Positions 8,431 to 27,428 of a DNA stretch of 42,713 nucleotides are shown here, piece after piece. The DNA is from a virus, in IMG/VR virus record IMGVR_UViG_3300045988_116821; one strand, given 5' to 3'. The notes under the pieces are model-generated. The model saw nothing but the letters and a program-made list of their open reading frames with translations, was not told where the DNA came from and searched no databases. Positions within the stretch are counted from its first letter, which is position 1. Each line of letters starts with the position of its first letter. The translations under genes and the position numbers were made by a program.

Positions 8431-8985
8431 TTAACATTCAGCCTTAAATAACTCAAGTATTTTCTTTTCGTAATCTGTATAATAACTTCCGCTATTATAC
8501 AGCCAACTTCGATAATACCAATAAGCATTTTTCGCTGCCTGATTACTTAGATCAAAAACGTTTCTTATCGAATCTGGAGTGATATGTTCTATGAAAGTAT
8601 GAATCAACGGCGGCGGCGCAAGTGCATATTTAGCAAAAAATTTTGCCTCCGATTCTTCCTCTTCTCCATCTTTGATATGGCCCATTGCGTAATGACCAAT
8701 TTCGTGCATTATGGTCTGATTGATTCTTCCATAACTTTCGCAAGCATCGTTATAAAAAATCATCCACTCTTGGCTACGAGAACTGCCTATTGAAAATCCA
8801 TCTTTACTTTCACGCATTGCTGCACTTCTCTTTTCCTCACTCAATGCCGAGTACGGAATAACTTTGATTCCCATTTTTGTAGCCATTTCAAATGCACTAA
8901 TTGGAATGCATCTGATTCCATACACAGAAAAGGTATCTATCACTGTCCTCTTAATCTCTTCATACTGCTCATCTTCCAGACGCAT
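8431..8985 (-). CDS. ImmA/IrrE-type (M78, COG2856) zinc metallopeptidase
   Basis: HEIGHYAMGH (HExxH) motif; directly downstream of an XRE gene. Confidence 0.8.
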   Translation of the reverse strand: MRLEDEQYEEIKRTVIDTFSVYGIRCIPISAFEMATKMGIKVIPYSALSEEKRSAAMRESKDGFSIGSSRSQEWMIFYNDACESYGRINQTIMHEIGHYAMGHIKDGEEEESEAKFFAKYALAPPPLIHTFIEHITPDSIRNVFDLSNQAAKNAYWYYRSWLYNSGSYYTDYEKKILELFKAEC

Positions 8986-9000
8986 ATGTTCTCCTGCTTG

Positions 9001-9312
9001 TTACATTAAAAGATTGATAAGTTCCATTTTTTGCTCTTTACTCATTTTTGAAGCATTTCGTGCTAAAATCACTCGTGCATCATCAAACTCTTTCTGTAAG
9101 CCACCTGTATTATCTTGGCCCAATAAATAATCCGTTGATGTATCAAGTGCTTTCGCAATTTTAATCAGAGTGGCGCCTCTCGGTATGCGATCTCCCTTTA
9201 AGTAATGGGAAATGGCAGATTCTGTCACTCCTGATAAAAATGCCAGATCCTTTTGCGTCATTTTACGGTCAGAAATTATTTCTGCCATACGCTCTGCTAT
9301 GTCCCTTGCCAT
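9001..9312 (-). CDS. XRE-family HTH regulator (103 aa)
   Basis: MTQKDLAFLSGVTESAISHYLKGDRIPRGATLIKIAKAL helix-turn-helix; SD AAGGAGGAAG. Confidence 0.85.
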   Translation of the reverse strand: MARDIAERMAEIISDRKMTQKDLAFLSGVTESAISHYLKGDRIPRGATLIKIAKALDTSTDYLLGQDNTGGLQKEFDDARVILARNASKMSKEQKMELINLLM

Positions 9313-9494: not shown

Positions 9495-9581
9495 TCGGAA
9501 CGGATGGATTCGAACCATCGCCATCGACTTCATCAGTCAATTTCTGGTTACACAGTTGCTCTGCCACTAAGCTACGTTCCA
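9495..9581 (-). tRNA. tRNA-like gene (~87 nt) with canonical acceptor, D and T arms and an extra arm, but no canonical anticodon stem; isotype not assignable
   Basis: Acceptor TGGAACG/CGTTCCG; TA; D arm GCTT-AGTGGCA-GAGC; T arm GATGG-TTCGAAT-CCATC; 6-bp arm TTGACT-GATGA-AGTCGA. The 17 nt at the anticodon-arm position (ACTGTGTAACCAGAAAT) do not form a 5-bp stem. Confidence 0.5.
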
Positions 9582-10171: not shown

Positions 10172-11095
10172 TTATTTATCCGCGATCACGGCATCGGCTC
10201 CCTGGACTGTAACCCAGCCGTTTTTGTAGTGAGCTTCTGCCTCCTTCATTTTGATCAATTCATCTGTAATGGATGCACTGAGTTCTTTATTAGCCTCTGC
10301 CTGTGCTTTTGCCTTGGTTTTTGTGTTTTCTGCTTCAGCTGCTGCTTTAACCTTAGCTTTCTTTGCGTCTGCCTTTGCCTTAGTCAGTTCGATCTGGGCA
10401 TCTGCTTCAGCCTGGAGTTTTTCTGTTTCTTTCTGGACTTTAACCTTTTCCTGCTCTGCCTGAGCCTGTTGTTTCTCTTGCAAGGCTGTCACTCTATTAT
10501 CAATGGCCTGCTTCAGCTTTTTATCCGGATGCACATCTACGATGGAAGCATCCAGGACTTCAATGCCGTATTTTTTATGAAAATCTTTGTTAAGATATTC
10601 CGTGATAGCGTTATTCAGCTCGGATCTGTTTCCGGAATAGATGTCCATCATTGAATAATCGGTTGTAACCTCAGAAATCTTTGACTTCAAAACAGTTTTG
10701 ACACGGTTTTCGATAATATCTTCCCCGTCCATTCCCTTGAAACGTTTGTATGTATCAATCACTGTATCCGGATCGTATCGGTAACTCATCTGGAAAGATA
10801 CTGCAATGCTGGCATCGTCTGATGTGGCCACTTTAAAAGAATCATCCTCTTTACTGCCGTCCCTTTTGTCCTTTGTGAGAACAAGGATCTCGTTGCTGGT
10901 ACTGAATTCCTTTACTTTGTTCATCGGTGCGATAAAATGCATTCCCGGGGTGAGTACTGTGTCCTGTACTCCATCTTTATAGTTGTAGACGATACCAACT
11001 TTACCTGTGCCGATAAAATCCATTCTTGATACAGTGTATCCTCCGCCAAGAACTGCTACTGCTGCCACGGTTCCGATAATAATCTTACTTTTCAT
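10172..11095 (-). CDS. SPFH/Band-7 (prohibitin/HflC-like) membrane protein with a C-terminal Ala/Lys/Glu coiled coil
   Basis: N-terminal TM (IIIGTVAAVAVLGGG), SPFH-type core, long AEAxxK coiled coil. Confidence 0.75.
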   Translation of the reverse strand: MKSKIIIGTVAAVAVLGGGYTVSRMDFIGTGKVGIVYNYKDGVQDTVLTPGMHFIAPMNKVKEFSTSNEILVLTKDKRDGSKEDDSFKVATSDDASIAVSFQMSYRYDPDTVIDTYKRFKGMDGEDIIENRVKTVLKSKISEVTTDYSMMDIYSGNRSELNNAITEYLNKDFHKKYGIEVLDASIVDVHPDKKLKQAIDNRVTALQEKQQAQAEQEKVKVQKETEKLQAEADAQIELTKAKADAKKAKVKAAAEAENTKTKAKAQAEANKELSASITDELIKMKEAEAHYKNGWVTVQGADAVIADK

Positions 11096-13191: not shown

Positions 13192-14910
13192 TTATTCTTC
13201 TCGACAATCTTTGACAAGATTCTTGATCAATCTCAATCCTGCTGTGATTAATTGCTGTCTCATAATCTCCATGCGCGGCATCCCTGGTTCTTCCTTTTCC
13301 ACTTCAAGGATTTCCCTGAGTTTTCGCTCTTCATCGTACAAGTATCCAGTTATTTCTATTTCTGTCGGAATTGGGATGTCCTTCAGTTCCGGCGGCCAGG
13401 CATCTGGCATGTCGGTAGTATCACCGAAATGGTCTGCGGTTTTGGTATCTTCAACAGAATCGTGCTGCTTTTCGTCTGGTGTTTCCGCTACCGATTGGCA
13501 GCGTTCTTCTTCATCGAACTTGGAATCCCATGGATCGTAAAGTTTCTTTGCTTCTGCAATCAGTTTTCCGTACTTCATGGACACTTTTTCTTTTCCAATT
13601 TCAATCTCCAGTCCTGCGTTAAATCCCATGAATGTATATCCAACCTCAGGTCCAGTACATCCGTGGTATCCATACGGTGCAATTCTCTTTTGCGCTGCTC
13701 GGGCAGCATCTCCATTGTTATTGTATAGCCTGCATATTCTCATGATTGTTTTTAATTTTTCAGGATATGCCCCACAGAATGCTTTTACTGCTGCTGATAT
13801 TGCTGATATTGTGTCTTCCGTCTTCTCCGGTGTATCTACAGGTACCATCTTGACCGGTTTCTTATGCCCATATTTCCTGATCAGGATCTTGGCCAGGGAC
13901 TGCCAGGACAGCTCGTGTTCAAATACCCCTCCTGGATTAAAGGTGATCCCGGCGGTTGATCCTTGGTAATTGAGGTGTCCGTTTCGGACACGTGCTGATC
14001 CATACAAGTTCGAAAGCATGAAGATGGTCATGTTCTTGTCTTCCTGGATGATGTAGTTCTTCATGTTCTTGTTTGTGCTCTCATAGAAACGCTCAATCTG
14101 TGTCTCTGCCGGAATCTCCGTATCATCTTCCGGAGGTCTGTTCTGGCCGGTTGCTGTTTCGATGGTCATCTGGCCAGGAATACCTTTCTCTGCTTCCTGC
14201 TGCCGGTACAGGTCTCTGATATCATCCAGTGTCAAGACCCCTGCTTCTTCGTATAACTCGCAAGCCTGTTTCTGATATTCTTTATTGAGTTTTGACACTT
14301 CATAGGCCACGGAAATCTTGATCCTGTCTTCTTTAAATTCTGACATCAGCTGCTCACAGAGGTTTGTGCTAATCGAATGGTATCTTCCCAGCTGACCGCC
14401 GGACGTTCCGATCAGGTCTTTCAGGATGTCTCTTGTCTTTCCTTCCATCGGTGATTTCTCACGGAGTTCTTTCACAAGGCCTTCCATCTTGAGCGTTTCA
14501 GTCATTTTTTCCCAGTCGGATTTATCACGATAACAGTTCGCCTGGATGATCATGATCTGGCGTACTATGTCGTTTTCCTGACCCGCATCCTGTTCCAGTT
14601 TCGATTGTGTTTTATATATACATGGAACCCGGCTGAATCTGTCATTTCCTTCATTGAGCAGATCAATACAGCACTTCCGGCGGCAATGGCCGGCTATAAC
14701 GTAATCCTTCCCATCCCTGTTCTCGATCAGGAGCGGTTGAAGGATCCCCAGAAGCTTGATCGACTGTTTCAGCCTTTCAAGCTTCTCTGTGTTGTAGAAG
14801 TTTTCTTCTGACGGGATCAGATCTTTTGGATTTCGGTATACGATCTTCTGGTCCTGCTGCCGGTCCGGGACTGATCTGTCATTGAGAAGTCCTTTCAGAT
14901 CAAATTTCGC
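13192..14910 (-). CDS. parB: ParB-like N-terminal domain protein with a large uncharacterised C-terminal region
   Basis: LGILQPLLIENRDGKDYVIAGHCRR ParB/Srx-type motif; start overlaps the ParA stop; ATG 14910 with SD GGAGA. Confidence 0.7.
   Translation of the reverse strand, partial: AKFDLKGLLNDRSVPDRQQDQKIVYRNPKDLIPSEENFYNTEKLERLKQSIKLLGILQPLLIENRDGKDYVIAGHCRRKCCIDLLNEGNDRFSRVPCIYKTQSKLEQDAGQENDIVRQIMIIQANCYRDKSDWEKMTETLKMEGLVKELREKSPMEGKTRDILKDLIGTSGGQLGRYHSISTNLCEQLMSEFKEDRIKISVAYEVSKLNKEYQKQACELYEEAGVLTLDDIRDLYRQQEAEKGIPGQMTIETATGQNRPPEDDTEIPAETQIERFYESTNKNMKNYIIQEDKNMTIFMLSNLYGSARVRNGHLNYQGSTAGITFNPGGVFEHELSWQSLAKILIRKYGHKKPVKMVPVDTPEKTEDTISAISAAVKAFCGAYPEKLKTIMRICRLYNNNGDAARAAQKRIAPYGYHGCTGPEVGYTFMGFNAGLEIEIGKEKVSMKYGKLIAEAKKLYDPWDSKFDEEERCQSVAETPDEKQHDSVEDTKTADHFGDTTDMPDAWPPELKDIPIPTEIEITGYLYDEERKLREILEVEKEEPGMPRMEIMRQQLITAGLRLIKNLVKDCREE
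13974..13991. repeat. GTGTCC-N5-GGACAC palindrome, copy 2 (inside the parB-like gene)
   Basis: GGTGTCCGTTTCGGACAC. Confidence 0.85.
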
Positions 14911-15682
14911 CATCGTCTTCATCTCCAATCATATCCAGGTACTCATTCACAAGGGTTTCATAGTCTTCTGCTGCCGCTGATCTGGGACTGTGCAGGGCTA
15001 CAGGCATGCGCACGAATGTGCTCCTTGCTACTACACCGGAAAAGCGTATCTTCGTTCTCATGATCGGGTACTGTTCTTCTATGATCTCCGCTCCCTGCAG
15101 GTGCGCCTGGTTGAATTTCTGATATTTTGTTATAAAGCAGCGCACGTTCTTCAGATCCGGATTCAATTCTTCTTTTACATCATCGATCTGATCCAGAAGC
15201 TCGTTCATACCTTCCAGCGTGTTATCATCTACTTCTACCGGAATCAGGACATCGTCTGCGGCAGTCAGGGCGTTGATCACCGACACATTGATATCCGGAG
15301 CATTATCGATCACGCAGAAATCGTAATTATCGGCTACCTGCTGCAGTGCCTTTCTCAACCGGTTCTGCTGTGGGCGTACACGGTCCATGGTTACTTCCAT
15401 GTTTGCAGTCAGGAGACCAAGGTTTGCTGTGATGATATCCAGATGCAGATAGTCAGTCTTGTTGATCAGTTTTTCCATATCCGGATGCCGGTCTACCATG
15501 ATCCGGTCAATCCCTTCCCCATCCTGGGTACGGCGGTTCATTCCACGTGAACAGTCCCCCTGCTTGTCATTATCAACCAGAAGCACCTTGTATCCTTTCC
15601 GCATCAGTATGTATGCGATGTTAATGCTTGATGTGGTCTTGGCCACACCGCCCTTTAAATTGATGATTGCTATTGTTCTCAT
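14900..15682 (-). CDS. parA: ParA/Soj-type partition ATPase
   Basis: MRTIAIINLKGGVAKTT deviant Walker A; ATG 15682 with SD AAGGAGG. Confidence 0.85.
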   Translation of the reverse strand: MRTIAIINLKGGVAKTTSSINIAYILMRKGYKVLLVDNDKQGDCSRGMNRRTQDGEGIDRIMVDRHPDMEKLINKTDYLHLDIITANLGLLTANMEVTMDRVRPQQNRLRKALQQVADNYDFCVIDNAPDINVSVINALTAADDVLIPVEVDDNTLEGMNELLDQIDDVKEELNPDLKNVRCFITKYQKFNQAHLQGAEIIEEQYPIMRTKIRFSGVVARSTFVRMPVALHSPRSAAAEDYETLVNEYLDMIGDEDDGEI

Positions 15683-15692
15683 GATATCCTCC

Positions 15693-16094
15693 TTATCTTT
15701 CCTCTCCCATGCTGCATCCATCATTTTCTCTCAACTGTACAGCTGGAAGGCCAAACCCTCTACAATAGTGATATCCTGACTTTCCTTTAGCTCTGTACCT
15801 GCAGTCTTTGCAGAGTGTGATCTTACGATATCTGTTCATAAGCTGACCGGTCTGGCTCTTATCAAAGTTATTGATCTTCTCATATTCCTCCCGGATTCTG
15901 TCAGCATACTGTTGTAATCCGCAACGTCCGCATATCCTGTCCATCAAATCTCCCTGCATTTCTTCTCGAAACCAGCACAATTCATCGCAGACATATGCCA
16001 TTAATTTCTCAAGGATGCCGTCTATGCCTTCGTCTTCGTTCCTTGTCTGCTCTCTGCATCCATTCTGGTTTTCCTCCGATCGGTTCATCATCAA
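15693..16094 (-). CDS. Cys-rich (zinc-finger-like) hypothetical protein
   Basis: CGRCG and CKDCRYRAKGKSGYHYC patterns. Confidence 0.55.
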   Translation of the reverse strand: MMMNRSEENQNGCREQTRNEDEGIDGILEKLMAYVCDELCWFREEMQGDLMDRICGRCGLQQYADRIREEYEKINNFDKSQTGQLMNRYRKITLCKDCRYRAKGKSGYHYCRGFGLPAVQLRENDGCSMGEER

Positions 16095-16658: not shown

Positions 16659-17483
16659 TTATTCCCTTCTCTTCTCTGTTTTGATTAATATGTAATGCCG
16701 GTATGCGTATCCTGTTATCTTGTTTTTCCCGCATTTTACTGAGTTTGGCACGATCGCCCAGCCTTTTGGCGGCTTCGGATCTCGCGGCCTTCCATGCTTG
16801 TCCAGCAAGCTTCTTCTGTTTATCTCTTCTTTTTCTGGATCTTTGCGGATTAGATTCCTGGACGGGTGATACCGTTTCAGATCTTCCGGCTCATGATCCT
16901 GCAGCGGCTTGGTTATGTACTGTGCTAGTTCTCCAGAATCAACGTCATACACCCTTTTTGTCTGTGCATGGCCATGTTCCCAGAGTGTTTCTACCAGCAG
17001 GCCTGTGTCTGTTTCATCGTTTGACTTCCGATTGATTAAAACATGTACATGGGGTCCTCCATTCTTCCCGATTTCTAACCGGTATATATACTTCAGTTCC
17101 CATCCATATTTTTTATACTTGTCCCGGAGCTTTCGAATGAATTTTGACATATCTTTCTGCATCTGTTTCCAGGGCGGCCGTGAGCCTTTCTTGTACGTCA
17201 GCGTGAACCAGTAATCTCCTATTCCGAAATTCCACTTGATCAGCCTGCGAACATCTCTTTCTCTTTTCCATTGATTTTGCTTTGCAATTTCTTCCGGGGT
17301 AGCTTTCCGTCTTTTCTGGCGTTTCTGTCCCCTGGCACCATATCTTCCTGTATGTTTTTCTTCTACTTCTCTGGTGTTCCCACAGTCCCAGGTCTGCCTT
17401 ATATACCCACACTTCATAAAAGTGTCCCTCGTCTCATCTCTAATACGTTTAATCAAGCCTGCAAGGGGATCTTGTCCCCTCAA
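16659..17483 (-). CDS. rep: HUH rolling-circle replication initiator (Rep)
   Basis: FTLTY (motif 1), GPHVHVLI (HUH), ELAQYITKP (catalytic Tyr). Track start is TTG 17483; ATG 17417 (SD GAGGGA) is an alternative. Confidence 0.75.
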   Translation of the reverse strand: MRGQDPLAGLIKRIRDETRDTFMKCGYIRQTWDCGNTREVEEKHTGRYGARGQKRQKRRKATPEEIAKQNQWKRERDVRRLIKWNFGIGDYWFTLTYKKGSRPPWKQMQKDMSKFIRKLRDKYKKYGWELKYIYRLEIGKNGGPHVHVLINRKSNDETDTGLLVETLWEHGHAQTKRVYDVDSGELAQYITKPLQDHEPEDLKRYHPSRNLIRKDPEKEEINRRSLLDKHGRPRDPKPPKGWAIVPNSVKCGKNKITGYAYRHYILIKTEKRRE

Positions 17484-17891: not shown

Positions 17892-18047
17892 CTACCCCAC
17901 TGATTTTCTTATGTAATAATCATTGACTATCCGGGATACGTTATCTATGATCTTCTGATTGTCTTCCGGAGTATTGTTCTTGCAGTAATCGTCATGGATC
18001 CGGATTACTCCTCCGGATCCGTTTTTGATTTCTTTGATAACTGCCAT
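17892..18047 (-). CDS. Hypothetical small protein (51 aa, MAVIKEIKNGSGGVIRIHDDYCKNN...)
   Basis: Found by hand; SD AGGAGGTG 6 nt before ATG 18047. Confidence 0.6.
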   Translation of the reverse strand: MAVIKEIKNGSGGVIRIHDDYCKNNTPEDNQKIIDNVSRIVNDYYIRKSVG

Positions 18048-18129
18048 CTAGTTCACCTCCTGCTTTATCGTATGAAGATTGTGTTTATTGTGTTTATAGA
18101 ATTTTTACTACTTTGTCGAACGCTTTTTC

Positions 18130-18209
18130 TTGTGTTTTCGACAGTACACTCCTATTCTGTATATACAGGGTGCTGACACACCCGAGTACATATGGAAGGA
18201 GGGTTGATT
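18130..18209 (+). promoter_or_regulatory. Promoter/5'-leader cassette R1
   Basis: TTGTGT-N17-TATTCT, palindrome CTGTATATACAG, hairpin GGGTG-CTGACA-CACCC (18168..18183), CGAGTA, SD GGAAGGAGGG. Confidence 0.65.
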
Positions 18210-18443
18210 ATGCGAAGATCTCAGACACCGTTTAATGGCAAACGTTTTCTGCTTAATATCAATACCGGCGAAATTCACGACTTGGATAATGAAACAGCAG
18301 AATGCAAAATTGATAAAATTAAGCCAGAACACATTAGAATGGATAATTCTTATATGTCTTGTTTGATTTATGCAAAAATGATGGGATGCCCAAACGGAAA
18401 TGGCTGTTACTATTGCCTACGGGATAAAGACGATCGGTCTTAA
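18210..18443 (+). CDS. Small Cys-rich protein (77 aa)
   Basis: ATG 18210 after SD GGAAGGAGGG; ...GCPNGNGCYYCL. Confidence 0.65.
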   Translation: MRRSQTPFNGKRFLLNINTGEIHDLDNETAECKIDKIKPEHIRMDNSYMSCLIYAKMMGCPNGNGCYYCLRDKDDRS

Positions 18444-18623
18444 CCCTTCCTTACGACCTGCATCATTAATCCGGCGCAGGTCTTCTTCTGTTATCTTGCT
18501 TTCCAGATGTTCTACTAAAGCTTCTGGATTATCGTGGAATCTTTTTCCAAATTCTATAATTATGCGAGCTGCAAGATCTGTATTTGTCTGTTTTAAGAGA
18601 TCAAATCTGTTCATTTTTTCCAC
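18417..18623 (-). CDS. Hypothetical protein (68 aa), 3' end overlaps 18210..18443 by 27 nt
   Basis: SD AAGAGGTGG before ATG 18623. Confidence 0.6.
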   Translation of the reverse strand: MEKMNRFDLLKQTNTDLAARIIIEFGKRFHDNPEALVEHLESKITEEDLRRINDAGRKEGLRPIVFIP

Positions 18624-18663
18624 CTCTTTATAAAAATTTAAGCAAATTGTCGAACGTCTTTCA

Positions 18664-18740
18664 TTGACTGTCGAGCTGTATGCTCCTATCCTGTAAATAC
18701 AGGCACTGCCATGCCGAGTATCAAAGAAAGGAGGATCTTT
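18664..18740 (+). promoter_or_regulatory. Promoter/5'-leader cassette R2
   Basis: TTGACT-N17-TATCCT, palindrome CCTGTAAATACAGG, hairpin GGCA-CTGCCA-TGCC (18702..18715), GAGTA, SD AAAGGAGG. Confidence 0.65.
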
Positions 18741-18926
18741 ATGGAAAGAAAGTATTCTGTAACTGGTTTTTGTCCAAAAGCAAATAAGGACATCAAGGTA
18801 TCAGCCACATATGTCTTCAACACTAATGTATGGGAAAAAGGCATTAGCGAACTCCCTTGTTCATCTCCGTGTAAAGACGAATGTCCTATTCTCGCTTCTG
18901 CTCCAGATGAATTAAGGAGTATCTAA
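18741..18926 (+). CDS. Small Cys-rich protein (61 aa)
   Basis: ATG 18741 after SD AAAGGAGG; CX3CX3CP pattern (LPCSSPCKDECP). Confidence 0.6.
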   Translation: MERKYSVTGFCPKANKDIKVSATYVFNTNVWEKGISELPCSSPCKDECPILASAPDELRSI

Positions 18927-19241
18927 AACCAGTTCTATTCCATTCTCCCTGCAAAGCTCTACCATTTTATCTTTAGGAATTACACCCGATGCAAGCAGTC
19001 TACTGATTGATATGTATTGTCCTTTATATGGTTCCGGCAATGCAGGGAGCATTTTTGCGTCTAACGTAACATTCGTTGCTTTCAGTTCAATCTGTAACAC
19101 AGGAAGTCCTTTGTTTTCTTTGTAACTCTGTGAAAATCTCACTCCTGCAACTCCCGGAAGCTCTTTTCCGTCAATGAAAATTTTTGTGTTTGTAATTCCA
19201 TCTGTCTGAATTAATATTTGTGGTTTTCTTATGTTTTCCAT
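18912..19241 (-). CDS. Hypothetical protein (109 aa), 3' end overlaps 18741..18926 by 15 nt
   Basis: SD AGAGGAGAA before ATG 19241. Confidence 0.65.
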   Translation of the reverse strand: MENIRKPQILIQTDGITNTKIFIDGKELPGVAGVRFSQSYKENKGLPVLQIELKATNVTLDAKMLPALPEPYKGQYISISRLLASGVIPKDKMVELCRENGIELVLDTP

Positions 19242-19271
19242 CCTAATTCTCCTCTTGGTCTGACATAAATA

Positions 19272-19351
19272 TTGACTTTCTACTGTTTCTCTCCTATTCT
19301 TTTCTTACAGGGCACTGGCATGCCCGAGTATCTCAAAAAGGAGAAAATATC
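19272..19351 (+). promoter_or_regulatory. Promoter/5'-leader cassette R3
   Basis: TTGACT-N17-TATTCT, TACAG, hairpin GGGCA-CTGGCA-TGCCC (19310..19325), GAGTA, SD AAAGGAG. Confidence 0.65.
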
Positions 19352-19735
19352 ATGCAATTAACACCTGACTGTATACGTGATGTTTTACTTGAACTTGAAA
19401 CATTTCATATGGGTGCGTACAAAGCTGATGAATTTCAAAACTCTATATCATCACATGATCGTGAACAAGTTTTGTATACCCTCATTAAATTGTTTGAGGG
19501 TGGCTATATCAACGCTCAATACGAACGATCACCTACTGGCCAGTTGATTACATTTCGAGTTTATGATATGACTTTTCAAGGACATGAGTTTCTTGAAAAA
19601 ATCCGGTCAGAAACCGTATGGGATCAAAAATTAAAACCTGTTTTTACAACCATCGGTTCCATGTCTTTGGATGTAATATCCAATGTAGCAAATAGCGTCA
19701 TAACATCCCTCGTCTTAAAAAAACTGAACTTATAA
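19352..19735 (+). CDS. DUF2513-like winged-helix protein (127 aa)
   Basis: MQLTPDCIRDVLLELE... and ...MTFQGHEFLEKIR resemble the DUF2513/YjcQ type. Confidence 0.6.
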   Translation: MQLTPDCIRDVLLELETFHMGAYKADEFQNSISSHDREQVLYTLIKLFEGGYINAQYERSPTGQLITFRVYDMTFQGHEFLEKIRSETVWDQKLKPVFTTIGSMSLDVISNVANSVITSLVLKKLNL

Positions 19736-19915
19736 TTTAAAAAGCTTTTTTGCTGCGAAGTGGGTGCATTCTTCCAGATCCTGATTATCCGGAAGTTTGT
19801 ATCCGCTTTTTTCGATATAATAGATAAGTGCTGCACAAGAAATGCTTCGAGTCAGCCACCCTACGGCGCATATCGCTGTTGATATAACAAAAACTGCTGT
19901 TATCACTTCTCTCAC
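19730..19915 (-). CDS. Small membrane protein (61 aa), 3' end overlaps 19352..19735 by 6 nt
   Basis: N-terminal TM VITAVFVISTAICAVGWL; SD GGAGGTGAG. Confidence 0.6.
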   Translation of the reverse strand: MREVITAVFVISTAICAVGWLTRSISCAALIYYIEKSGYKLPDNQDLEECTHFAAKKLFKL

Positions 19916-20967: not shown

Positions 20968-21189
20968 TTAAACCGCCTTTCTCTGTTCATCCGAGAAAAA
21001 TATCGGATTCACATCGAGATGCTTGCATAATGCTAAAAATTCATCTACTCGCAAATCGCGATTTCTTTTCTCATTAAAAAGACTGTCATACAATGCCATG
21101 TATGGAATATGGGTTTTTCTTGATATATCTGATAGATTGAACCCTTTGTGTCTTATATACTCAGAAACTCTCTGTGTTGCTCCATCCAT
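20968..21189 (-). CDS. Cro-like HTH early regulator
   Basis: 73 aa, divergent from the repressor gene, SD AAAGGAGG, HTH-like FNLSDISRKTHIPYMALYDSL. Confidence 0.65.
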   Translation of the reverse strand: MDGATQRVSEYIRHKGFNLSDISRKTHIPYMALYDSLFNEKRNRDLRVDEFLALCKHLDVNPIFFSDEQRKAV

Positions 21190-21209
21190 ATCCGCGCCTC
21201 CTTTCTAAG

Positions 21210-21282
21210 TTTCTAAGAATTTATCTGTATAATATTCTATTATTCTCAGAATGTCAATACTTTTTTCTAATATTCTTAGAAT
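21210..21282. promoter_or_regulatory. Three 11-bp operators, ATTCT-N-AGAAT
   Basis: O1 at 21210..21220 (TTTCTAAGAAT), O2 at 21242..21252 (ATTCTCAGAAT), O3 at 21272..21282 (ATTCTTAGAAT); centres 32 and 30 bp apart. Confidence 0.75.
21229..21257 (-). promoter_or_regulatory. Early (cro-like) promoter TTGACA-N17-TATTAT
   Basis: Minus-strand -35 at 21252..21257, -10 at 21229..21234. Confidence 0.65.
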
Positions 21283-21287
21283 TCTTA

Positions 21288-21316
21288 TTGACACGTTAAA
21301 AACATAATGATATATT
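21288..21316 (+). promoter_or_regulatory. Repressor promoter TTGACA-N17-TGaTATATT
   Basis: -35 at 21288..21293, -10 at 21311..21316 with TGn. Confidence 0.7.
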
Positions 21317-21348
21317 CAAGATACCAAGAAGAAACGAAGGGATTATTT

Positions 21349-21870
21349 ATGAAAAGTTCTATCGGTGAAACATTAAAAAAATGCAGGCTTAACGCAGGGA
21401 AATCTGTAAAAGAAATTTCTGATTTATTAATATCTAAAGGTTTCAAAGCATCTGAAAAAACAATCTACAGCTGGGAAAGTGGTAATAGCCAACCTAGTCC
21501 TGACGCGTTTTTAATTATGTGCAAAGCTTATAATCTTTCAGATATATTAAGAACTTTCGGATATACGAATACTTCAGCTTCCGACGTTAAACCTGTCTCA
21601 ACTAATAATCATGAATTTATAAAAAAATACCGTGAGCTTGACACCCACGGTAAAGATATGGTTGATACTGTTCTTCAGAAAGAATATGAGCACATTATTG
21701 AATTGCGTGATTTTGCTCCGCAATCTAAATATATAGGTAAAGATCCCGATAACATTGTCACTGTTGATCTCACACCTCTCGCCGCTCATACTCGTACAGA
21801 TGTAGAACAAACTCCTGAAGGTGTTCAGCATGATCTGGATATTATGAACGATGATTCTCAATGGAAATAG
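21349..21870 (+). CDS. XRE-family phage repressor (CI-like, no S24 peptidase domain recognised)
   Basis: HTH SIGETLKKCRLNAGKSVKEISDLLISKGFKASEKTIYSWESGNSQPS; divergent from the cro-like gene. Confidence 0.8.
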   Translation: MKSSIGETLKKCRLNAGKSVKEISDLLISKGFKASEKTIYSWESGNSQPSPDAFLIMCKAYNLSDILRTFGYTNTSASDVKPVSTNNHEFIKKYRELDTHGKDMVDTVLQKEYEHIIELRDFAPQSKYIGKDPDNIVTVDLTPLAAHTRTDVEQTPEGVQHDLDIMNDDSQWK

Positions 21871-21885
21871 AAAGGGGAAATGCAA

Positions 21886-22152
21886 ATGCCAGAATTAAGT
21901 AGATTTGAGGGGATGGTTATTAAAATGTTATTTAATGACACTGTCCAGCATAATAAGCCGCATGTCCATGTTACTTACGGTGAATACAGAGCTTCTGTTG
22001 GTATTGACGGTGAACTGCTTGCTGGATCGCTTCCGCAAAAACAGTTTAAAATGCTGGTCGGTTGGCTTGCTCTGCACGAAGATGAAGCTTATGCAGCTTG
22101 GAACAAAGCTGTCAGAGGCGAACACTTTGATAAGATTAAGCCTTTACAGTAA
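21886..22152 (+). CDS. DUF4160-like protein
   Basis: MPELSRFEGMVIKMLFNDTVQHNKPHVHVTYGEY matches the DUF4160 N-terminal signature. Confidence 0.65.
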   Translation: MPELSRFEGMVIKMLFNDTVQHNKPHVHVTYGEYRASVGIDGELLAGSLPQKQFKMLVGWLALHEDEAYAAWNKAVRGEHFDKIKPLQ

Positions 22153-22165
22153 GGAGGAATTCTTT

Positions 22166-22465
22166 ATGTTTATTTCAAATGGAATTGTTTACGCTAGTGA
22201 ACGCCCGGAAAATGTACAGATTATTGCAGTAAAGCCATTGGATGATATGATGATGCTTCTCACTTTTTCAACTGGTGAGCAGAGACTTTTTGATGCTTCG
22301 GTATTAAACGGCCCCGCTTTCGCTCCATTAACTGATGAAAAAATATTCAAAGACTGCAAAATCGTAGATGGAGTTGTCACCTGGATGGACGAAGATATTG
22401 ACTGTGCTCCTGAATATATGTACGAGCATAGTTATGCGTATCCGTCCTTAAAATCCGCAATTTGA
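22166..22465 (+). CDS. DUF2442-like protein
   Basis: ATG 22166 after SD AAGGAGG; usual partner gene of DUF4160. The track ORF 21905..22465 is an upstream extension. Confidence 0.6.
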   Translation: MFISNGIVYASERPENVQIIAVKPLDDMMMLLTFSTGEQRLFDASVLNGPAFAPLTDEKIFKDCKIVDGVVTWMDEDIDCAPEYMYEHSYAYPSLKSAI

Positions 22466-22484
22466 ATTAAAAGGACTGATTTAT

Positions 22485-22952
22485 TTGACCTACGAACAAC
22501 TTTTAAGTACTGCCGATCAGGCCGGCCTTACAGTAAAGGAACGGCCGCTCCAAAAACATGATGGGCTGATCCGCGGCAATCGTATCGCTATTCGAAAAAG
22601 TATTGACACTCAGGCTGAAAAGTCCTGTGTGCTGGCTGAAGAACTTGGTCACCACTACACCACTACCGGCAATATCCTGGAACAGGCATCTGATGTGATG
22701 AACCGAAAGCAGGAATACCGCGCCAGGCTTTACGGCTATAATCTCCGTGTTGGCCTGATCGGGATCATTAAGGCTTACGAAGCCCGCTGTCGGAATCTTC
22801 ATGAGATGGCTGAGTATCTGGATGTACCGGAGGATTATCTCATTGAAGTGATCGACTGCTACCGTTCCAAATATGGGCAGTATGTTGCTGTGGATAATTA
22901 TATGATCTATTTTGTTCCCCAGCTGGCCGTGATGAGAATTGATGTTTTATAA
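22485..22952 (+). CDS. ImmA/IrrE-type metallopeptidase (anti-repressor protease candidate)
   Basis: TTG start; HExxH motif AEELGHHY; last gene of the repressor operon. Confidence 0.65.
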   Translation: MTYEQLLSTADQAGLTVKERPLQKHDGLIRGNRIAIRKSIDTQAEKSCVLAEELGHHYTTTGNILEQASDVMNRKQEYRARLYGYNLRVGLIGIIKAYEARCRNLHEMAEYLDVPEDYLIEVIDCYRSKYGQYVAVDNYMIYFVPQLAVMRIDVL

Positions 22953-22982: not shown

Positions 22983-23066
22983 CCAAGTAGCAAAGGTCGG
23001 AAAGGCTCCCGACACACTCGCAAGAGTACCTGAGATGATAGATACGCCGCCCATCTTGTTACTTGG
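22983..23066 (+). ncRNA. Candidate structured RNA (multi-helix junction) of unknown class
   Basis: P1 CCAAGTAGCAA/TTGTTACTTGG (11 bp, one G-U) encloses GTCGG..CCGAC, ACTC-GCAA-GAGT (GNRA loop) and GATG..CATC. Confidence 0.45.
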
Positions 23067-23077
23067 ATTATCTTAAA

Positions 23078-23106
23078 GGTGTTGTCGTTATGGCAACACC
23101 TTTTTT
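23078..23106 (+). terminator. Intrinsic terminator
   Basis: GGTGTTG-loop-CAACACC followed by TTTTTT. Confidence 0.8.
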
Positions 23107-24155: not shown

Positions 24156-24327
24156 ACATATAAAAACCGCCCCAGTACGCCAATACCGGGACGGTGGTGG
24201 ATCTCCGAAGAGATATCCGTTTTCAGCAAAAATATTGTATCATCTTCGGAGCGGCTGCACAATCAGAACATTTGTGTGGTCGTTATTTTTGTACCCATTT
24301 TTACATATTTTAAACCGAGGTGATATT

Positions 24328-25896
24328 ATGGAACTTTTAAATGTATGTATCTACCTGCGTAAGTCCCGTGCTGATCGGGAGGCTGAAGCCCGAGGTGAAG
24401 GCGAAACTCTCGCCCGACACGAGCGGATCCTGCTGGATCTTGCAAAAAAGCGTGGCTATAATGTAGGGGCGATCTATAAAGAGATTGTTTCCGGTGAGAC
24501 GATTTCTGCAAGGCCTGTTATGCAACAACTTCTTCGTGAAGTTGAATCCGGTATGTGGGATGGTGTCCTTGTTGTTGAAGTGGAACGTCTGGCTAGAGGC
24601 GATACCATTGACCAGGGTGTTGTTGCCAGATCTTTCCAATACTCCAACACATTAATCATTACTCCACTTAAAACTTACGATCCAAACAACGAATACGACG
24701 AAGAGTATTTTGAATTCGGACTTTTTATGTCCCGGCGTGAATACAAGACCATTCGCCGCCGTCTCACTGCAGGTCGCGAATCTTCCGCAAAAGAAGGAAA
24801 ATATTGCGGCAGTAAGCCGCCTTATGGATATTCCCGTGTAAAACTTGTTGGTGAAAAAGGATGGACACTGCAGCCTGTTCCTGACCAGGCAGAGATTGTC
24901 AAGCTTATATTCAATTTATATGTCCATGGAGTATCCGGCGAACGAATTGGAATGGCTAAGATCTGCCGTAAATTAAATGATTCCGGAATCAAGACCATGG
25001 ATGGTGGCCTATGGACCATTTCTCGTGTGCAGGCAATTCTCAGAAATCCAGTATATGAAGGAATGATACGATGGAACAGTCGGAAAGCAGTAAAGCATAT
25101 AAAGGATGGGCAAATAACTATCTCCCGTCCTTTCGCTCAGGATTATATTCTTGTCAAAGGCAGGCATCCTGCTATTGTATCAAGGGAACTCTTTCAGCAA
25201 GCTCAAGATATCGTAAACAAAAATCCTGCACGGCCGCTTAACTCTTTGCATGTTCTTCGTAACCCTCTTGCCGGTATTGTTCGTTGTGGAAAATGTGATC
25301 ATGTTATGACTCGTAAATCCCCTAATGGAAGACAGGGTGATCTGATCCGGTGCCCATACAGTTCTTGTAGCAATATAAGCAGCAAGCTTCCTCTTGTTGA
25401 AAAGGCTCTTCTTGACGGAATCCAGGAGCTTGTAGATGGCTACAGACTAAATAACAGTGTTTCCGATCAGGAGTATTCTCTTTCTATTTCTGAAAGAGAA
25501 AAAATGATTCAAGGAAAATTAAAAGAAATTGATATTTTAAAGAAAAGGAAACAAAGGCAGTATGATCTTCTTGAACAGGGAATTTACTCCACGGAAGAAT
25601 TTCTTGAACGCTCCCGTGCTACTGCTGCCGAGCTGTCTGCCTGCGATGCAGTAATTCTTTCTCTGAAGCAAGAAATTGAACATGAACAGGAACTTCAGTT
25701 TCAACGTTCCTCTTTTATTCCCAAGTGCGAGGATCTTCTCGCAAATTACTGGACGTGGGATACCTCTACAAAGAACCGATTTCTCCGTGAACTGATAGAA
25801 AAGGCTGTTTATACTAAAAACGCAAAAAATACATGGAAAAATGGCGATGACATCTCTTTTACTTTAGATATTTATCCAAAAATCCAGCAAAAGTAA
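24328..25896 (+). CDS. int: Large serine recombinase (integrase or resolvase)
   Basis: N-terminal catalytic VCIYLRKSRAD, recombinase domain, zinc ribbon CGKCDH...CPYSSC, C-terminal coiled coil; ATG 24328 after SD GAGGTG. Confidence 0.9.
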   Translation: MELLNVCIYLRKSRADREAEARGEGETLARHERILLDLAKKRGYNVGAIYKEIVSGETISARPVMQQLLREVESGMWDGVLVVEVERLARGDTIDQGVVARSFQYSNTLIITPLKTYDPNNEYDEEYFEFGLFMSRREYKTIRRRLTAGRESSAKEGKYCGSKPPYGYSRVKLVGEKGWTLQPVPDQAEIVKLIFNLYVHGVSGERIGMAKICRKLNDSGIKTMDGGLWTISRVQAILRNPVYEGMIRWNSRKAVKHIKDGQITISRPFAQDYILVKGRHPAIVSRELFQQAQDIVNKNPARPLNSLHVLRNPLAGIVRCGKCDHVMTRKSPNGRQGDLIRCPYSSCSNISSKLPLVEKALLDGIQELVDGYRLNNSVSDQEYSLSISEREKMIQGKLKEIDILKKRKQRQYDLLEQGIYSTEEFLERSRATAAELSACDAVILSLKQEIEHEQELQFQRSSFIPKCEDLLANYWTWDTSTKNRFLRELIEKAVYTKNAKNTWKNGDDISFTLDIYPKIQQK

Positions 25897-25994: not shown

Positions 25995-27428
25995 TTATTT
26001 TGTCTTTGCCTTCACATGTTCGATCACCTTTTTCCAGGAATCAATACCACAGGTTCCACTTACCTTTACGCCTGTGTTTTTCTGGAAAACTTTCAGGGAT
26101 GTTTCTGTATCGTCTCCGAAACGGCCATCCACAGTAACACCAAGTACAGACTGCAGCACAGAAACTGCAACGCCGGAATTCCCTTTCCGGATGATTGGAA
26201 GCTGGGTCTCAAACTTTCCCGTCAGAACTACTGCCTTTTTTGAAGTCTGTACCGGATACACTGCTTTTCCGTTCCAGTCATAGATGGTGTATCCCTGTTT
26301 CCACTCTTTCTTTGCATTCTCAAGGCTCTTGTATGCTCCGATCTGGCTCTTGCTGTCAGCCCAGGACTTTCTTGTGCGATAATACTTATCTACCGTCGGT
26401 GTGTCGGTCTTAGCTCCGATCAGCTGCTTGAACCGGTTCCAGTCACCTTTTGCACGGATTGCTGACGGGCAGTTCTTTGCACATACATCATAATGCTGCA
26501 CAACTCTGTCTGCCGGGATTCCCAGCTGTTTCATAAGCTGTTTGCACACCTGGACTGTATTCTGGAAAGCTTTCTCGTAGTTATAGCCCGCCTGAACGCA
26601 CATCTCGATTCCTACTGAATTTCTGTTGTTGACAGTACCGAACAGCCGACCGCCGTAGTTGACGCCCACGTGCCATGCTCCACGGTTGTATGGAAGCGCC
26701 TGATACGCTTCTGTGTCGTCCACATATACATGTGCAGAATATCCCTTAAAGTTGCCATCATGCTGTGCTTTTGCATGCGCTTTCGCATTTGCACCCTTGG
26801 CATAGTTATCCGTGTTGTGAATTACGATATATGCCGGTTTCTGACCTGCATAGCTATTGTTGTTACTGATAAGGCTTGTGTTGATATTCATGGTATTACT
26901 CTCCTTTTCTGTTTTTGATGTCTTGATAGATAATATGCCATTCAGGATGTTGATGATTTTCTGTCCGTAGTTCTTTCCGGATGCCCAGCCCTGACCTTTG
27001 GGATTTTCCTGGATGCCGAGATGCTCAACATACTCAGCGCAGCCTCTTGATACGTATGTATATCGCGGGTCAATACATTTCTGTTTCAGTCCGTCTGTAC
27101 AAGCGTAAGCCTGCAGATGCTGGATCTGCGCCCTGATTCCTTCTTTCGCAGTTTTGAAGCTGCAGCCTTTCTTTCCTGTGACGTTCACACCTAATCCGCA
27201 GAAATTATTCTGATCAAGTGTTACTGCTGATCCCGAAAACGTGAAGTTTCCTGTTTCCAAACAGGACTGGGCAAAAGCAATGTCACCACGCACGCCCTCT
27301 TCCGTGCCTTCCGTGATATACAGAGGAATCATCTTTGTGACCGAATCGGACACCTGTGGATTTACTTTTTTGATGTAAACCTTCATCTGTTCAACGCTGG
27401 CCTGTGGGGTTCCCATGATCTTTATCAT
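25995..27428 (-). CDS. Multidomain endolysin: glucosaminidase + N-acetylmuramoyl-L-alanine amidase + cell-wall-binding domains
   Basis: FAQSCLETGNFTFSG (glucosaminidase-like), YIVIHNTDNY...AHVYVDD (Amidase_2-like), C-terminal PG_binding_1-like NSGVAVSVLQSVLGVTVDGRFG. Confidence 0.85.
   Translation of the reverse strand: MIKIMGTPQASVEQMKVYIKKVNPQVSDSVTKMIPLYITEGTEEGVRGDIAFAQSCLETGNFTFSGSAVTLDQNNFCGLGVNVTGKKGCSFKTAKEGIRAQIQHLQAYACTDGLKQKCIDPRYTYVSRGCAEYVEHLGIQENPKGQGWASGKNYGQKIINILNGILSIKTSKTEKESNTMNINTSLISNNNSYAGQKPAYIVIHNTDNYAKGANAKAHAKAQHDGNFKGYSAHVYVDDTEAYQALPYNRGAWHVGVNYGGRLFGTVNNRNSVGIEMCVQAGYNYEKAFQNTVQVCKQLMKQLGIPADRVVQHYDVCAKNCPSAIRAKGDWNRFKQLIGAKTDTPTVDKYYRTRKSWADSKSQIGAYKSLENAKKEWKQGYTIYDWNGKAVYPVQTSKKAVVLTGKFETQLPIIRKGNSGVAVSVLQSVLGVTVDGRFGDDTETSLKVFQKNTGVKVSGTCGIDSWKKVIEHVKAKTK
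27337..27354. repeat. GTGTCC-N5-GGACAC palindrome, copy 3 (one mismatch; inside the endolysin gene)
   Basis: GTGACCGAATCGGACACC; shares CCGAATCGGACACC with copy 1. Confidence 0.75.

Follow-up and report, generated by a model that had tools for sequence, protein, structure and literature searches.

A previously uncurated 5'-leader RNA motif within a mobile promoter cassette of temperate Lachnospiraceae phages

The IMG/VR virus record IMGVR_UViG_3300045988_116821, a stretch of 42,713 nucleotides which was analyzed over its full length and is referred to here as the window, belongs to a temperate tailed phage that is possibly phage-plasmid-like. It carries three copies (R1, R2 and R3) of a unit of about 96 bases, each leading from a promoter to a strong ribosome-binding site by way of a small RNA hairpin located where the transcript is predicted to start, and each placed in front of a different gene (Table 1). 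The layout is TTGACT-N17-(CTCC)TATYCT-N6-ACA-(4-5 bp stem, YUGNCR loop)-GAGTA-N5-GAAAGGAG-N6-8-ATG, where GAAAGGAG is the Shine-Dalgarno sequence (SD), and the distance from the -10 hexamer to the stem is 9 nt in all three copies. Searching the window for the exact pattern CTCCTATYCT-N6-ACAGG gave matches solely at 18149, 18683 and 19291. Additionally, a covariance model (CM) was built from 63 copies (the three of the window and 60 from other phages) and run over the entire 42.7-kb window with filters off. It returned R1, R3 and R2, in that order (E-values in Table 1), with the next match at E = 0.62, a gap which shows that the repeat is real and that the window holds exactly three copies. A preliminary description of this DNA, made from the letters alone, had reported three recurring blocks with identical spacing, whose stems differ and yet remain complementary around a CTGNCA loop; sequence reading, pattern search and CM recovered all three blocks, and the stems and loop were borne out in each of them. 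Its assignment of the third downstream gene to DUF2513 was likewise confirmed by a PF10711 match.

Concerning the distribution of the unit, at least 118 IMG/VR viral stretches carry the pattern CTCCTATYCT-N6-ACAGG-N9-17-CGAGTA, as do 23 contigs of the species-representative genome set. Nearly all titles of these contigs point to Lachnospiraceae or related Clostridia (Blautia, 'Ruminococcus sp.', Faecalimonas, Hominisplanchenecus, Anaerotignum), the lone exception being a metagenome bin labelled Prevotella. Two CM scans of related loci gave 171 and 140 matches. Genomes bear one to five copies, many of them two to five, and all copies lie within promoters. The family consensus reads aTTGACTttt-N12-CTCCTATyCT-N5-T-ACAGG-stem-YUGNCR-stem-CCGAGTA-N4-5-GAAAGGAG-N6-8-ATG. 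When the whole window was compared with Rfam 15 at gathering thresholds, no family was found at the cassettes, and at E ≤ 10 only chance-level matches appeared in 18050-19400. BLAST of the region and the cassette against the GenBank phages of INPHARED, and of the cassette alone against the plasmids of PLSDB, returned no match, so that there is no annotated relative in those collections; no prior description of the cassette was met in the literature searched. The leader is a previously uncurated 5'-leader RNA motif in a mobile phage regulatory cassette. A covariance-model search for further covarying homologues, which the preliminary description had put forward as a check, thus yielded hundreds of them in related phages, with strong covariation of the stem.

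The covariation was quantified on two alignments of distinct rows, both fitted to the CM and hence biased toward structure: in the first (A2, 100 rows) 99.6% of the stem cells pair, with double changes in four of the five pairs and 105 doubly changed cells, and in the second (A3, 105 rows, drawn partly from a scan without a fixed promoter) 98.0% pair, with double changes in all five pairs and 125 doubly changed cells. These counts uphold the view that structure is conserved in the stem. Registers slid by one to three columns pair at 9-53% (9-46% in A2). The same complementarity is present in the raw pattern matches (GGGCA/TGCCC, GGGTG/CACCC, GGGTA/TACCC, GGCA/TGCC, GGCTT/AAGCC, GGCTC/GAGCC, GGCTG/CAGCC, GGACA/TGTCC, GGTTC/GAACC and others), and the family has at least 20 distinct stem sequences. 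Two copies of the R1 lineage (L050, 1222-1318, minus strand; L115, 6591-6686, plus strand) contain one A·C mismatch in their stem, GGGTA/CACCC, which looks like the half-way state of a compensatory change between GGGTG/CACCC and GGGTA/TACCC. No covarying column pairs beyond the 5-bp stem were detected in a mutual-information scan. An outer UAC/GUA helix suggested by RNAfold (in R1 also GUAU/AUAU) was rejected, since it shows no covariation, has an uncompensated change of U48 to C and lies upstream of the predicted +1.

Among 88 distinct cores there are 22 G·U or U·G pairs and three A·C or C·A pairs, an excess which indicates that the folded strand is the plus-strand RNA and speaks against a minus-strand RNA or a palindrome of duplex DNA. 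It is very unlikely that the element works on the minus strand, for instance as a processing or pause signal in the leftward early lytic transcript. The cassettes are always antisense to early lytic genes, their reverse complement can also form a hairpin in which the commonest loop-closing C..A becomes a U·G wobble, and one copy was flagged as terminator-like (18715-18702). However, the 22 G·U and U·G pairs would be mismatches on that strand, no U-tract follows the minus-strand hairpin in R1 or R3, and the strict spacing to the plus-strand -10 and SD would find no explanation. Hardly credible, in turn, is a duplex-DNA operator, in which a palindrome from +4 to +19 would bind a dimeric repressor and the covariation would stem from symmetric half-sites. 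A position just past the start site is typical of repressors, and R1 and R2 do have true palindromes alongside, but the asymmetry of G·T over A·C is unexpected in duplex DNA, and so many stems (three in one genome alone) are nearly perfectly complementary. Furthermore, the conserved ACAGG, CCGAGTA and CTGNCA loop are asymmetric, the CI/Cro-type operators of the phage (ATTCTnAGAAT, 21210-21282) are unrelated, and in cluster K mycobacteriophages the comparable ESAS repeats, discussed below, have uncompensated half-site changes (Pope et al., 2011, PMC3203893), the opposite of what the cassette stems show.

The hairpin is tightly coupled to a promoter. Wherever it occurs, the invariant A of ACAGG is preceded at 6-7 nt by a sigma-A-type -10, and in 1.3 Mb of related DNA 113 of the 115 distinct instances of hairpin, NAGTA and SD have both -10 and -35 at fixed spacing, the other two being point-mutated promoters. 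A scan excluding A at the canonical -11 still matched 40 stretches. In these the same leader stands 6-7 nt after TATAAT, TATACT, TGnTATAAT or TAAAAT, and the -35 hexamers differ as well. This persistence behind differing promoters argues that the constant unit is the leader RNA, and we infer that the invariant A of ACAGG is the transcription start, which places the beginning of the stem at +4. An alternative sigma factor, considered on account of the conserved CTCCTATTCT, was rejected because related copies combine TATAAT, TATACT or an extended -10 with the same leader. Pairing of the CTCCT before the -10 with AGGAG in a read-through RNA, as an anti-SD, was also dropped: the two are complementary, but they do not covary, and variant promoters often lack CTCC.

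Behind the cassettes stand about 90 distinct cargo proteins across loci, and four to nine unrelated genes can follow one and the same promoter-leader sequence; this, together with the hundreds of homologues, agrees with the proposal of a reusable cassette. The cargo includes Abi_alpha (PF14337, E = 2e-47; PADLOC PDC-S47), a DUF4145 protein with a weak PD-T7-4 match and several DUF2513 proteins, and some of it is, judged by such matches, made up of known or candidate defence genes. Many small cargo proteins match no family; by sequence reading, several are Cys-rich or end in a hydrophobic tail, which is probably membrane-spanning. In BLAST comparisons many loci lose homology to the window at 18201-18212. 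Three loci (L045, L094, L024) are similar only over the ~114-bp cassette (93-97%), Rep being 67% identical or not detected; in L067 the ORF of cargo 1 alone is cleanly replaced by another gene (window 18213-18423), and in L069 R1 is joined straight to R3. Breakpoints at the cassette end and swaps of cargo only indicate that the cassette is a recombination junction besides an expression signal. Such exchange of cargo at the cassettes, the PF23343 Rep 630 bp away and the fact that attC sites and HUH targets typically have hairpins conserved in structure but variable in sequence could suggest a single-stranded DNA hairpin serving mobility or replication, like an integron attC or the site of an HUH nuclease (e.g. 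the neighboring Rep). We consider this the least probable of the explanations weighed here. Fixed distances to the -10 and SD would be meaningless for a recombination site, the one to five copies per genome are all in promoters, and the breakpoints fit plain homologous recombination over ~100 bp of near-identity. In attC the hairpin lies 3' of the cassette ORF and is used by the tyrosine integrase IntI, whereas here it lies 5' of the ORF, within the promoter-leader; among the scanned proteins there is no IntI-type tyrosine integrase, and the sole recombinase is the large serine recombinase.

The orientation of the cassettes is equally regular. They are co-oriented in all 79 multi-copy loci, and tblastn orientation statistics place them opposite to Rep (94/94), ParA (26/26) and Cro (12/12), and parallel to CI (24/24) and, with few exceptions, to the recombinase (31/34). 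The three cassette genes of the window run in the same direction as the XRE repressor. This is the orientation expected of prophage-expressed genes, and the cassette genes would accordingly be expressed in lysogens. Interleaved with them are small minus-strand genes in the lytic direction, whose 3' ends they overlap by 27 nt (18417-18443), 15 nt (18912-18926) and 6 nt (19730-19735), and a terminator scan of the window predicted no plus-strand terminator after the cargo genes. Convergent overlaps with no terminator render the plus- and minus-strand transcripts mutually antisense, which may allow the lysogenic and lytic programmes to act on each other by antisense control or transcriptional interference. 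Morons, in the concept of Juhala and Hendrix, are extra genes with their own promoter and terminator that are expressed from the prophage. The cassette genes resemble them in having their own predicted promoter, in presence or absence between related phages, in prophage orientation and in some defence or exclusion functions; they differ in that no terminator of their own is predicted, their 3' ends overlap convergent genes and their promoter-leader is standardised. Orientation and some of the cargo agree with the earlier label of moron-type genes; with no terminator after the cargo, these are not textbook morons.

Table 1. Coordinates of the cassettes, their cargo and other features of the window, with hairpin-less cassettes of related loci (last four lines).
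Feature	Position	Strand	Remarks
Cassette R1	18117-18213	+	CM 89.3 bits, E 5e-18
R1 promoter elements	-35 TTGTGT 18130-18135; -10 TATTCT 18153-18158; predicted +1 A 18165		
R1 leader hairpin	18168-18183		stem GGGTG 18168-18172 / CACCC 18179-18183, loop CTGACA
R1 downstream elements	GAGTA 18184-18188; SD 18196-18202; ATG 18210		
Cargo 1	18210-18443	+	77-aa Cys-rich protein, no Pfam or PADLOC match
Cassette R2	18651-18744	+	CM 79.2 bits, E 9e-16; promoter-like 9/12 in promoter scan
R2 promoter elements	-35 TTGACT 18664-18669; -10 TATCCT 18687-18692; predicted +1 A 18699		
R2 leader hairpin	18702-18715		stem GGCA 18702-18705 / TGCC 18712-18715, loop CTGCCA
R2 downstream elements	GAGTA 18716-18720; SD 18726-18734; ATG 18741		
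Cargo 2	18741-18926	+	61-aa Cys-rich protein, no family match
Cassette R3	19259-19355	+	CM 87.3 bits, E 1.5e-17; also called by promoter scan
R3 promoter elements	-35 TTGACT 19272-19277; -10 TATTCT 19295-19300; predicted +1 A 19307		
R3 leader hairpin	19310-19325		stem GGGCA 19310-19314 / TGCCC 19321-19325, loop CTGGCA
R3 downstream elements	GAGTA 19326-19330; SD 19337-19343; ATG 19352		
Cargo 3	19352-19735	+	127-aa DUF2513 protein (PF10711, E 1.3e-18)
R1 palindrome	18157-18168		CTGTATATACAG, between -10 and hairpin
R2 palindrome	18691-18702		CTGTAAATACAG, equivalent of that in R1
R1 upstream block	18093-18121	-	TTCGAC-N16-TATAAA, hexamer span 18093-18120
R2 upstream block	18627-18655	-	TTCGAC-N16-TATAAA, hexamer span 18627-18654
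51-aa gene	17892-18047	-	divergent from R1; one of the interleaved genes, lytic direction
Interleaved small genes	18417-18614, 18912-19241, 19730-19915	-	lytic direction
ParB_N-like	13192-14928	-	
ParA	14900-15724	-	
Rep	16659-17483	-	PF23343; 630 bp from cassettes
Cro-like HTH	20968-21189	-	
XRE repressor	21307-21870	+	
Large serine recombinase	24235-25896	+	
Endolysin	25995-27428	-	
Long unannotated ORFs	28.5-42.7 kb	-	presumed virion/tail genes
Degenerate cassette, L004	1333-1390	-	
Degenerate cassette, L009	8064-8160	+	
Degenerate cassette, L021	1850-1926	-	
Degenerate cassette, L023	4226-4319	-	

On a narrow balance of probability, the cassette is a promoter plus 5'-terminal protective leader-hairpin unit for lysogeny-oriented accessory genes, doubling as a recombination linker. 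A host sigma-A-type promoter, TTGACT-17-TATYCT, would start transcription at the invariant A of ACAGG, and the first ~20 nt of the transcript would fold to a 4-5 bp hairpin beginning 3 nt from the 5' end, followed ten nt past it by the near-perfect Firmicute SD GAAAGGAG and then by the start codon. The 5'-terminal stem-loop would protect the message against decay that depends on the 5' end (RNase J1/RppH type), would keep the SD open, and might additionally be read by a factor; in a Firmicute with such decay, a protective stem would raise the expression of single-gene messages. The cassettes would drive accessory genes (exclusion, abortive infection etc.), oriented for lysogeny and antisense to early lytic genes. 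Near-identity of the ~100-bp unit between otherwise diverged phages would also let it serve homologous recombination that swaps cargo. Stem-loops a few nt from the 5' end are known to stabilise mRNAs, as in E. coli ompA, B. subtilis aprE and the T7 gene 10 leader. The cassette shares with them a stem ~3 nt from the predicted 5' end, a single-stranded stretch with a strong SD, and conservation of the structure of the stem, not of its sequence; they are, however, single-gene leaders, whereas the cassette is reused throughout its family, and its conserved loop and flanks suggest a role beyond passive protection.

Several observations weigh against a protective leader. The start site is predicted from the -10 spacing alone, the +1 A lying 7-8 nt after the -10. 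The hairpin is weak, as single-sequence folding gave -4.9 to -8.2 kcal/mol with z of -0.7 to -1.6, not significant against shuffles, so that the case for structure rests on covariation. Degenerate cassettes in four related loci (Table 1) keep the ATTGACTTTT...CTCCTATTCT promoter with no hairpin leader, and the hairpin is therefore not obligatory for every gene; the promoter module can stand alone, the hairpin never does. Since the cargo genes lack predicted terminators, plus-strand read-through from upstream could make some hairpins internal. Finally, the near-invariant Y-UGNC-R loop, the covarying closing position and the ACA/GAGUA flanks exceed the needs of a stabiliser and point to sequence-specific recognition.

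Such recognition would be at the center of another explanation, in which the hairpin serves as operator for a dedicated trans-acting RNA-binding factor encoded by phage or host; this factor would read the loop, its wobble-type closing pair and the ACA/GAGUA flanks, and would co-regulate all cassette genes post-transcriptionally (by translational repression or activation, or targeted cleavage) or modify the polymerase in the manner of nut and put. In the loop, U2, G3 and C5 show conservation of at least 90%, and ACA and CCGAGTA on either side of the hairpin are invariant, with the stem sequence left free; the first and sixth loop bases change jointly between C..A and U..G, and the distance from hairpin to SD is fixed. 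That the same leader is kept behind different promoters fits this explanation as well. Recognition by a factor is compatible with a stabilising role and does not exclude it. Protein scans, on the other hand, gave no candidate RNA-binding protein among the genes of the window, there are no downstream terminators for an antiterminator to override, and by sequence reading the loop fits neither the boxB-type GNRA-like pentaloop nor the ANTAR hexaloop rule; the invariant flanks could reflect constraints on the initial transcribed sequence instead. We regard an RNA-binding factor as possible, if rather doubtful. The nut sites of lambda (boxA/boxB) and put of HK022 are small promoter-proximal RNA hairpins which act in cis on the transcript or polymerase, and like the cassette they have a 5-bp covarying stem, a conserved loop and several copies per phage genome. 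Unlike nut, the cassette has a YUGNCR hexaloop, has no predicted plus-strand terminators downstream and keeps a fixed distance to +1 and SD, which nut sites do not require. The three leaders contain no boxA-like CGCTCTT, and no N-like protein was identified, no search having been aimed at one.

The nearest concept comes from T4-type phages, whose promoter-early stem-loops (PeSLs) are mobile regulatory cassettes (Arbiol et al., 2010, PMC2839356; Comeau et al., 2014, PMC4122927). Both are short conserved units of a strong sigma-70-type promoter and a G/C stem-loop, repeated before small ORFans in a plastic region, and both act as recombination linkers by which single genes are inserted, deleted or replaced. 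Regarding the promoter, the agreement is one of consensus: TTGACT-17-TATYCT was called promoter-like in R2 and R3, and relatives have TATAAT, TATACT and TGnTATAAT; regarding breakpoints, the homology ends, the single-ORF swap of L067 and the R1-R3 junction of L069 are of the PeSL kind. The stem-loop of PeSLs, however, is a transcription terminator next to the promoter, whereas that of the cassette belongs to the post-start 5' leader, 9 nt after the -10, and has 4-5 bp, no U-tract, RNA-type covariation and a conserved loop. The hosts of PeSLs are lytic myoviruses of Gram-negative bacteria, the cassette is found in temperate Lachnospiraceae phages, and there is no sequence similarity between the two. 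A second comparison concerns the SAS/ESAS elements of cluster K mycobacteriophages, in which a 13-bp motif of the GGGATAGGAGCCC type lies 3-7 bp before start codons, and the ESAS consist of 17-bp inverted repeats with uncompensated changes, for which the authors favored DNA binding (Pope et al., 2011, PMC3203893). Like the cassette, these are asymmetric SD-containing motifs before many unrelated non-structural genes in one orientation, and the SAS is often preceded by an inverted repeat (PMC3203893). The SAS is not tied to a promoter, whereas the cassette is tied to the -10 and its 4-5 bp stem covaries; the sequences also differ.

Some features reported for R1 and R2 in the preliminary description lie outside the core unit. 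The palindromes over the start site exist (two exact matches; five at ≤1 mismatch versus 0.6 expected), but they are restricted to some cassette lineages, and the N6 segment is variable across copies. As operators of CI or Cro they were rejected, because the switch operators ATTCTnAGAAT differ in sequence. The shared TTCGAC-N16-TATAAA block, which reads TTTATA-N16-GTCGAA on the plus strand, is likewise present and lineage-specific, being seen in three lineages (R1, R2 and L001 types). Both of its hexamers are conserved, its spacer varies in sequence and the spacing is constant, which fits a divergent promoter for adjacent minus-strand genes; at R1 it is possibly that of the 51-aa gene. The promoter scan, though, did not call it, and its -35 match is poor. 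R3-type cassettes have neither the start-site palindrome nor the divergent block. At R1, TGTCGAA (18114-18120) and TTCGACA (18137-18143) form an inverted repeat. Just upstream of R1, inside the minus-strand 51-aa gene, a plus-strand terminator-like hairpin (17994-18022) of 11 pairs is followed by TTTTGATTTC and could insulate R1 from upstream plus-strand transcription.

Beyond the cassettes, a large serine recombinase occurs in the same element as a rolling-circle-type Rep, ParA and a ParB_N-like protein, and several genome matches (L124, L126, L127, L129, L135) lie on separate contigs of 35-40 kb; these two observations together suggest a possible phage-plasmid lifestyle. The lysis-lysogeny switch region (21195-21300), which separates the Cro-like gene from the XRE repressor, has divergent near-consensus promoters, TTGACA-17-TATTAT leftward and TTGACA-17-TATATT rightward. 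It also has three palindromes of the form ATTCTnAGAAT (21210, 21242 and 21272, at intervals of 30-32 bp), which are probably the CI/Cro operators. Two sets of XRE-HTH and Peptidase_M78 (ImmA/IrrE-like) genes are encoded in this one phage, at 8431-9312 (minus strand) and 21307-22952 (plus strand), the latter with a DUF2442 protein between the two. The lysogeny module also harbors a full-length skipping-rope RNA (Rfam RF02924, 64.9 bits, E = 1.7e-13) at 22986-23063 on the plus strand, between the ImmA-like gene and a Big_2-domain gene, with an apparent intrinsic terminator downstream (23078-23106); it was rejected as a partner of the cassette hairpin, having no evident complementarity to the loop. 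Adjoining the XRE/ImmA-like pair at 8431-9312, a tRNA-Val on the minus strand (9495-9581; ARAGORN; Rfam tRNA 43 bits) has the unusual anticodon AAC and an unusual length of 87 nt. Additionally, an SPFH/Band 7 protein (PF01145, E = 3e-26) is encoded at 10172-11095 (minus strand) in the early/accessory region.

Represented by ~190 distinct copies whose compensatory variation is near-perfect and whose strand is clear, the motif is a mark of accessory and defence genes in temperate phages of Blautia, Ruminococcus and other Lachnospiraceae, dominant but genetically little-studied bacteria of the human gut. It can be used as a search handle for prophage exclusion and abortive-infection genes in gut metagenomes, and as a compact natural part of promoter, leader and ribosome-binding site for expression in Lachnospiraceae. 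It is also a second independent example, after the PeSLs of T4-type phages, of standardised regulatory cassettes doubling as phage recombination linkers. More tentatively, the hairpin may be a tag, composed of the Y-UGNC-R loop with its isosteric closing position (C·A/U·G) and of ACA and GAGUA on its flanks, for a dedicated RNA-binding factor. If so, all lysogeny-oriented accessory and defence genes of a large family of uncultured gut Lachnospiraceae phages would constitute a single post-transcriptional regulon whose members switch jointly, for instance when the prophage is induced or on superinfection, with a tag that travels with its promoter as a mobile, recombination-competent unit, and the reading of the hairpin by such a factor would add a new layer of post-transcriptional control to lysogeny.

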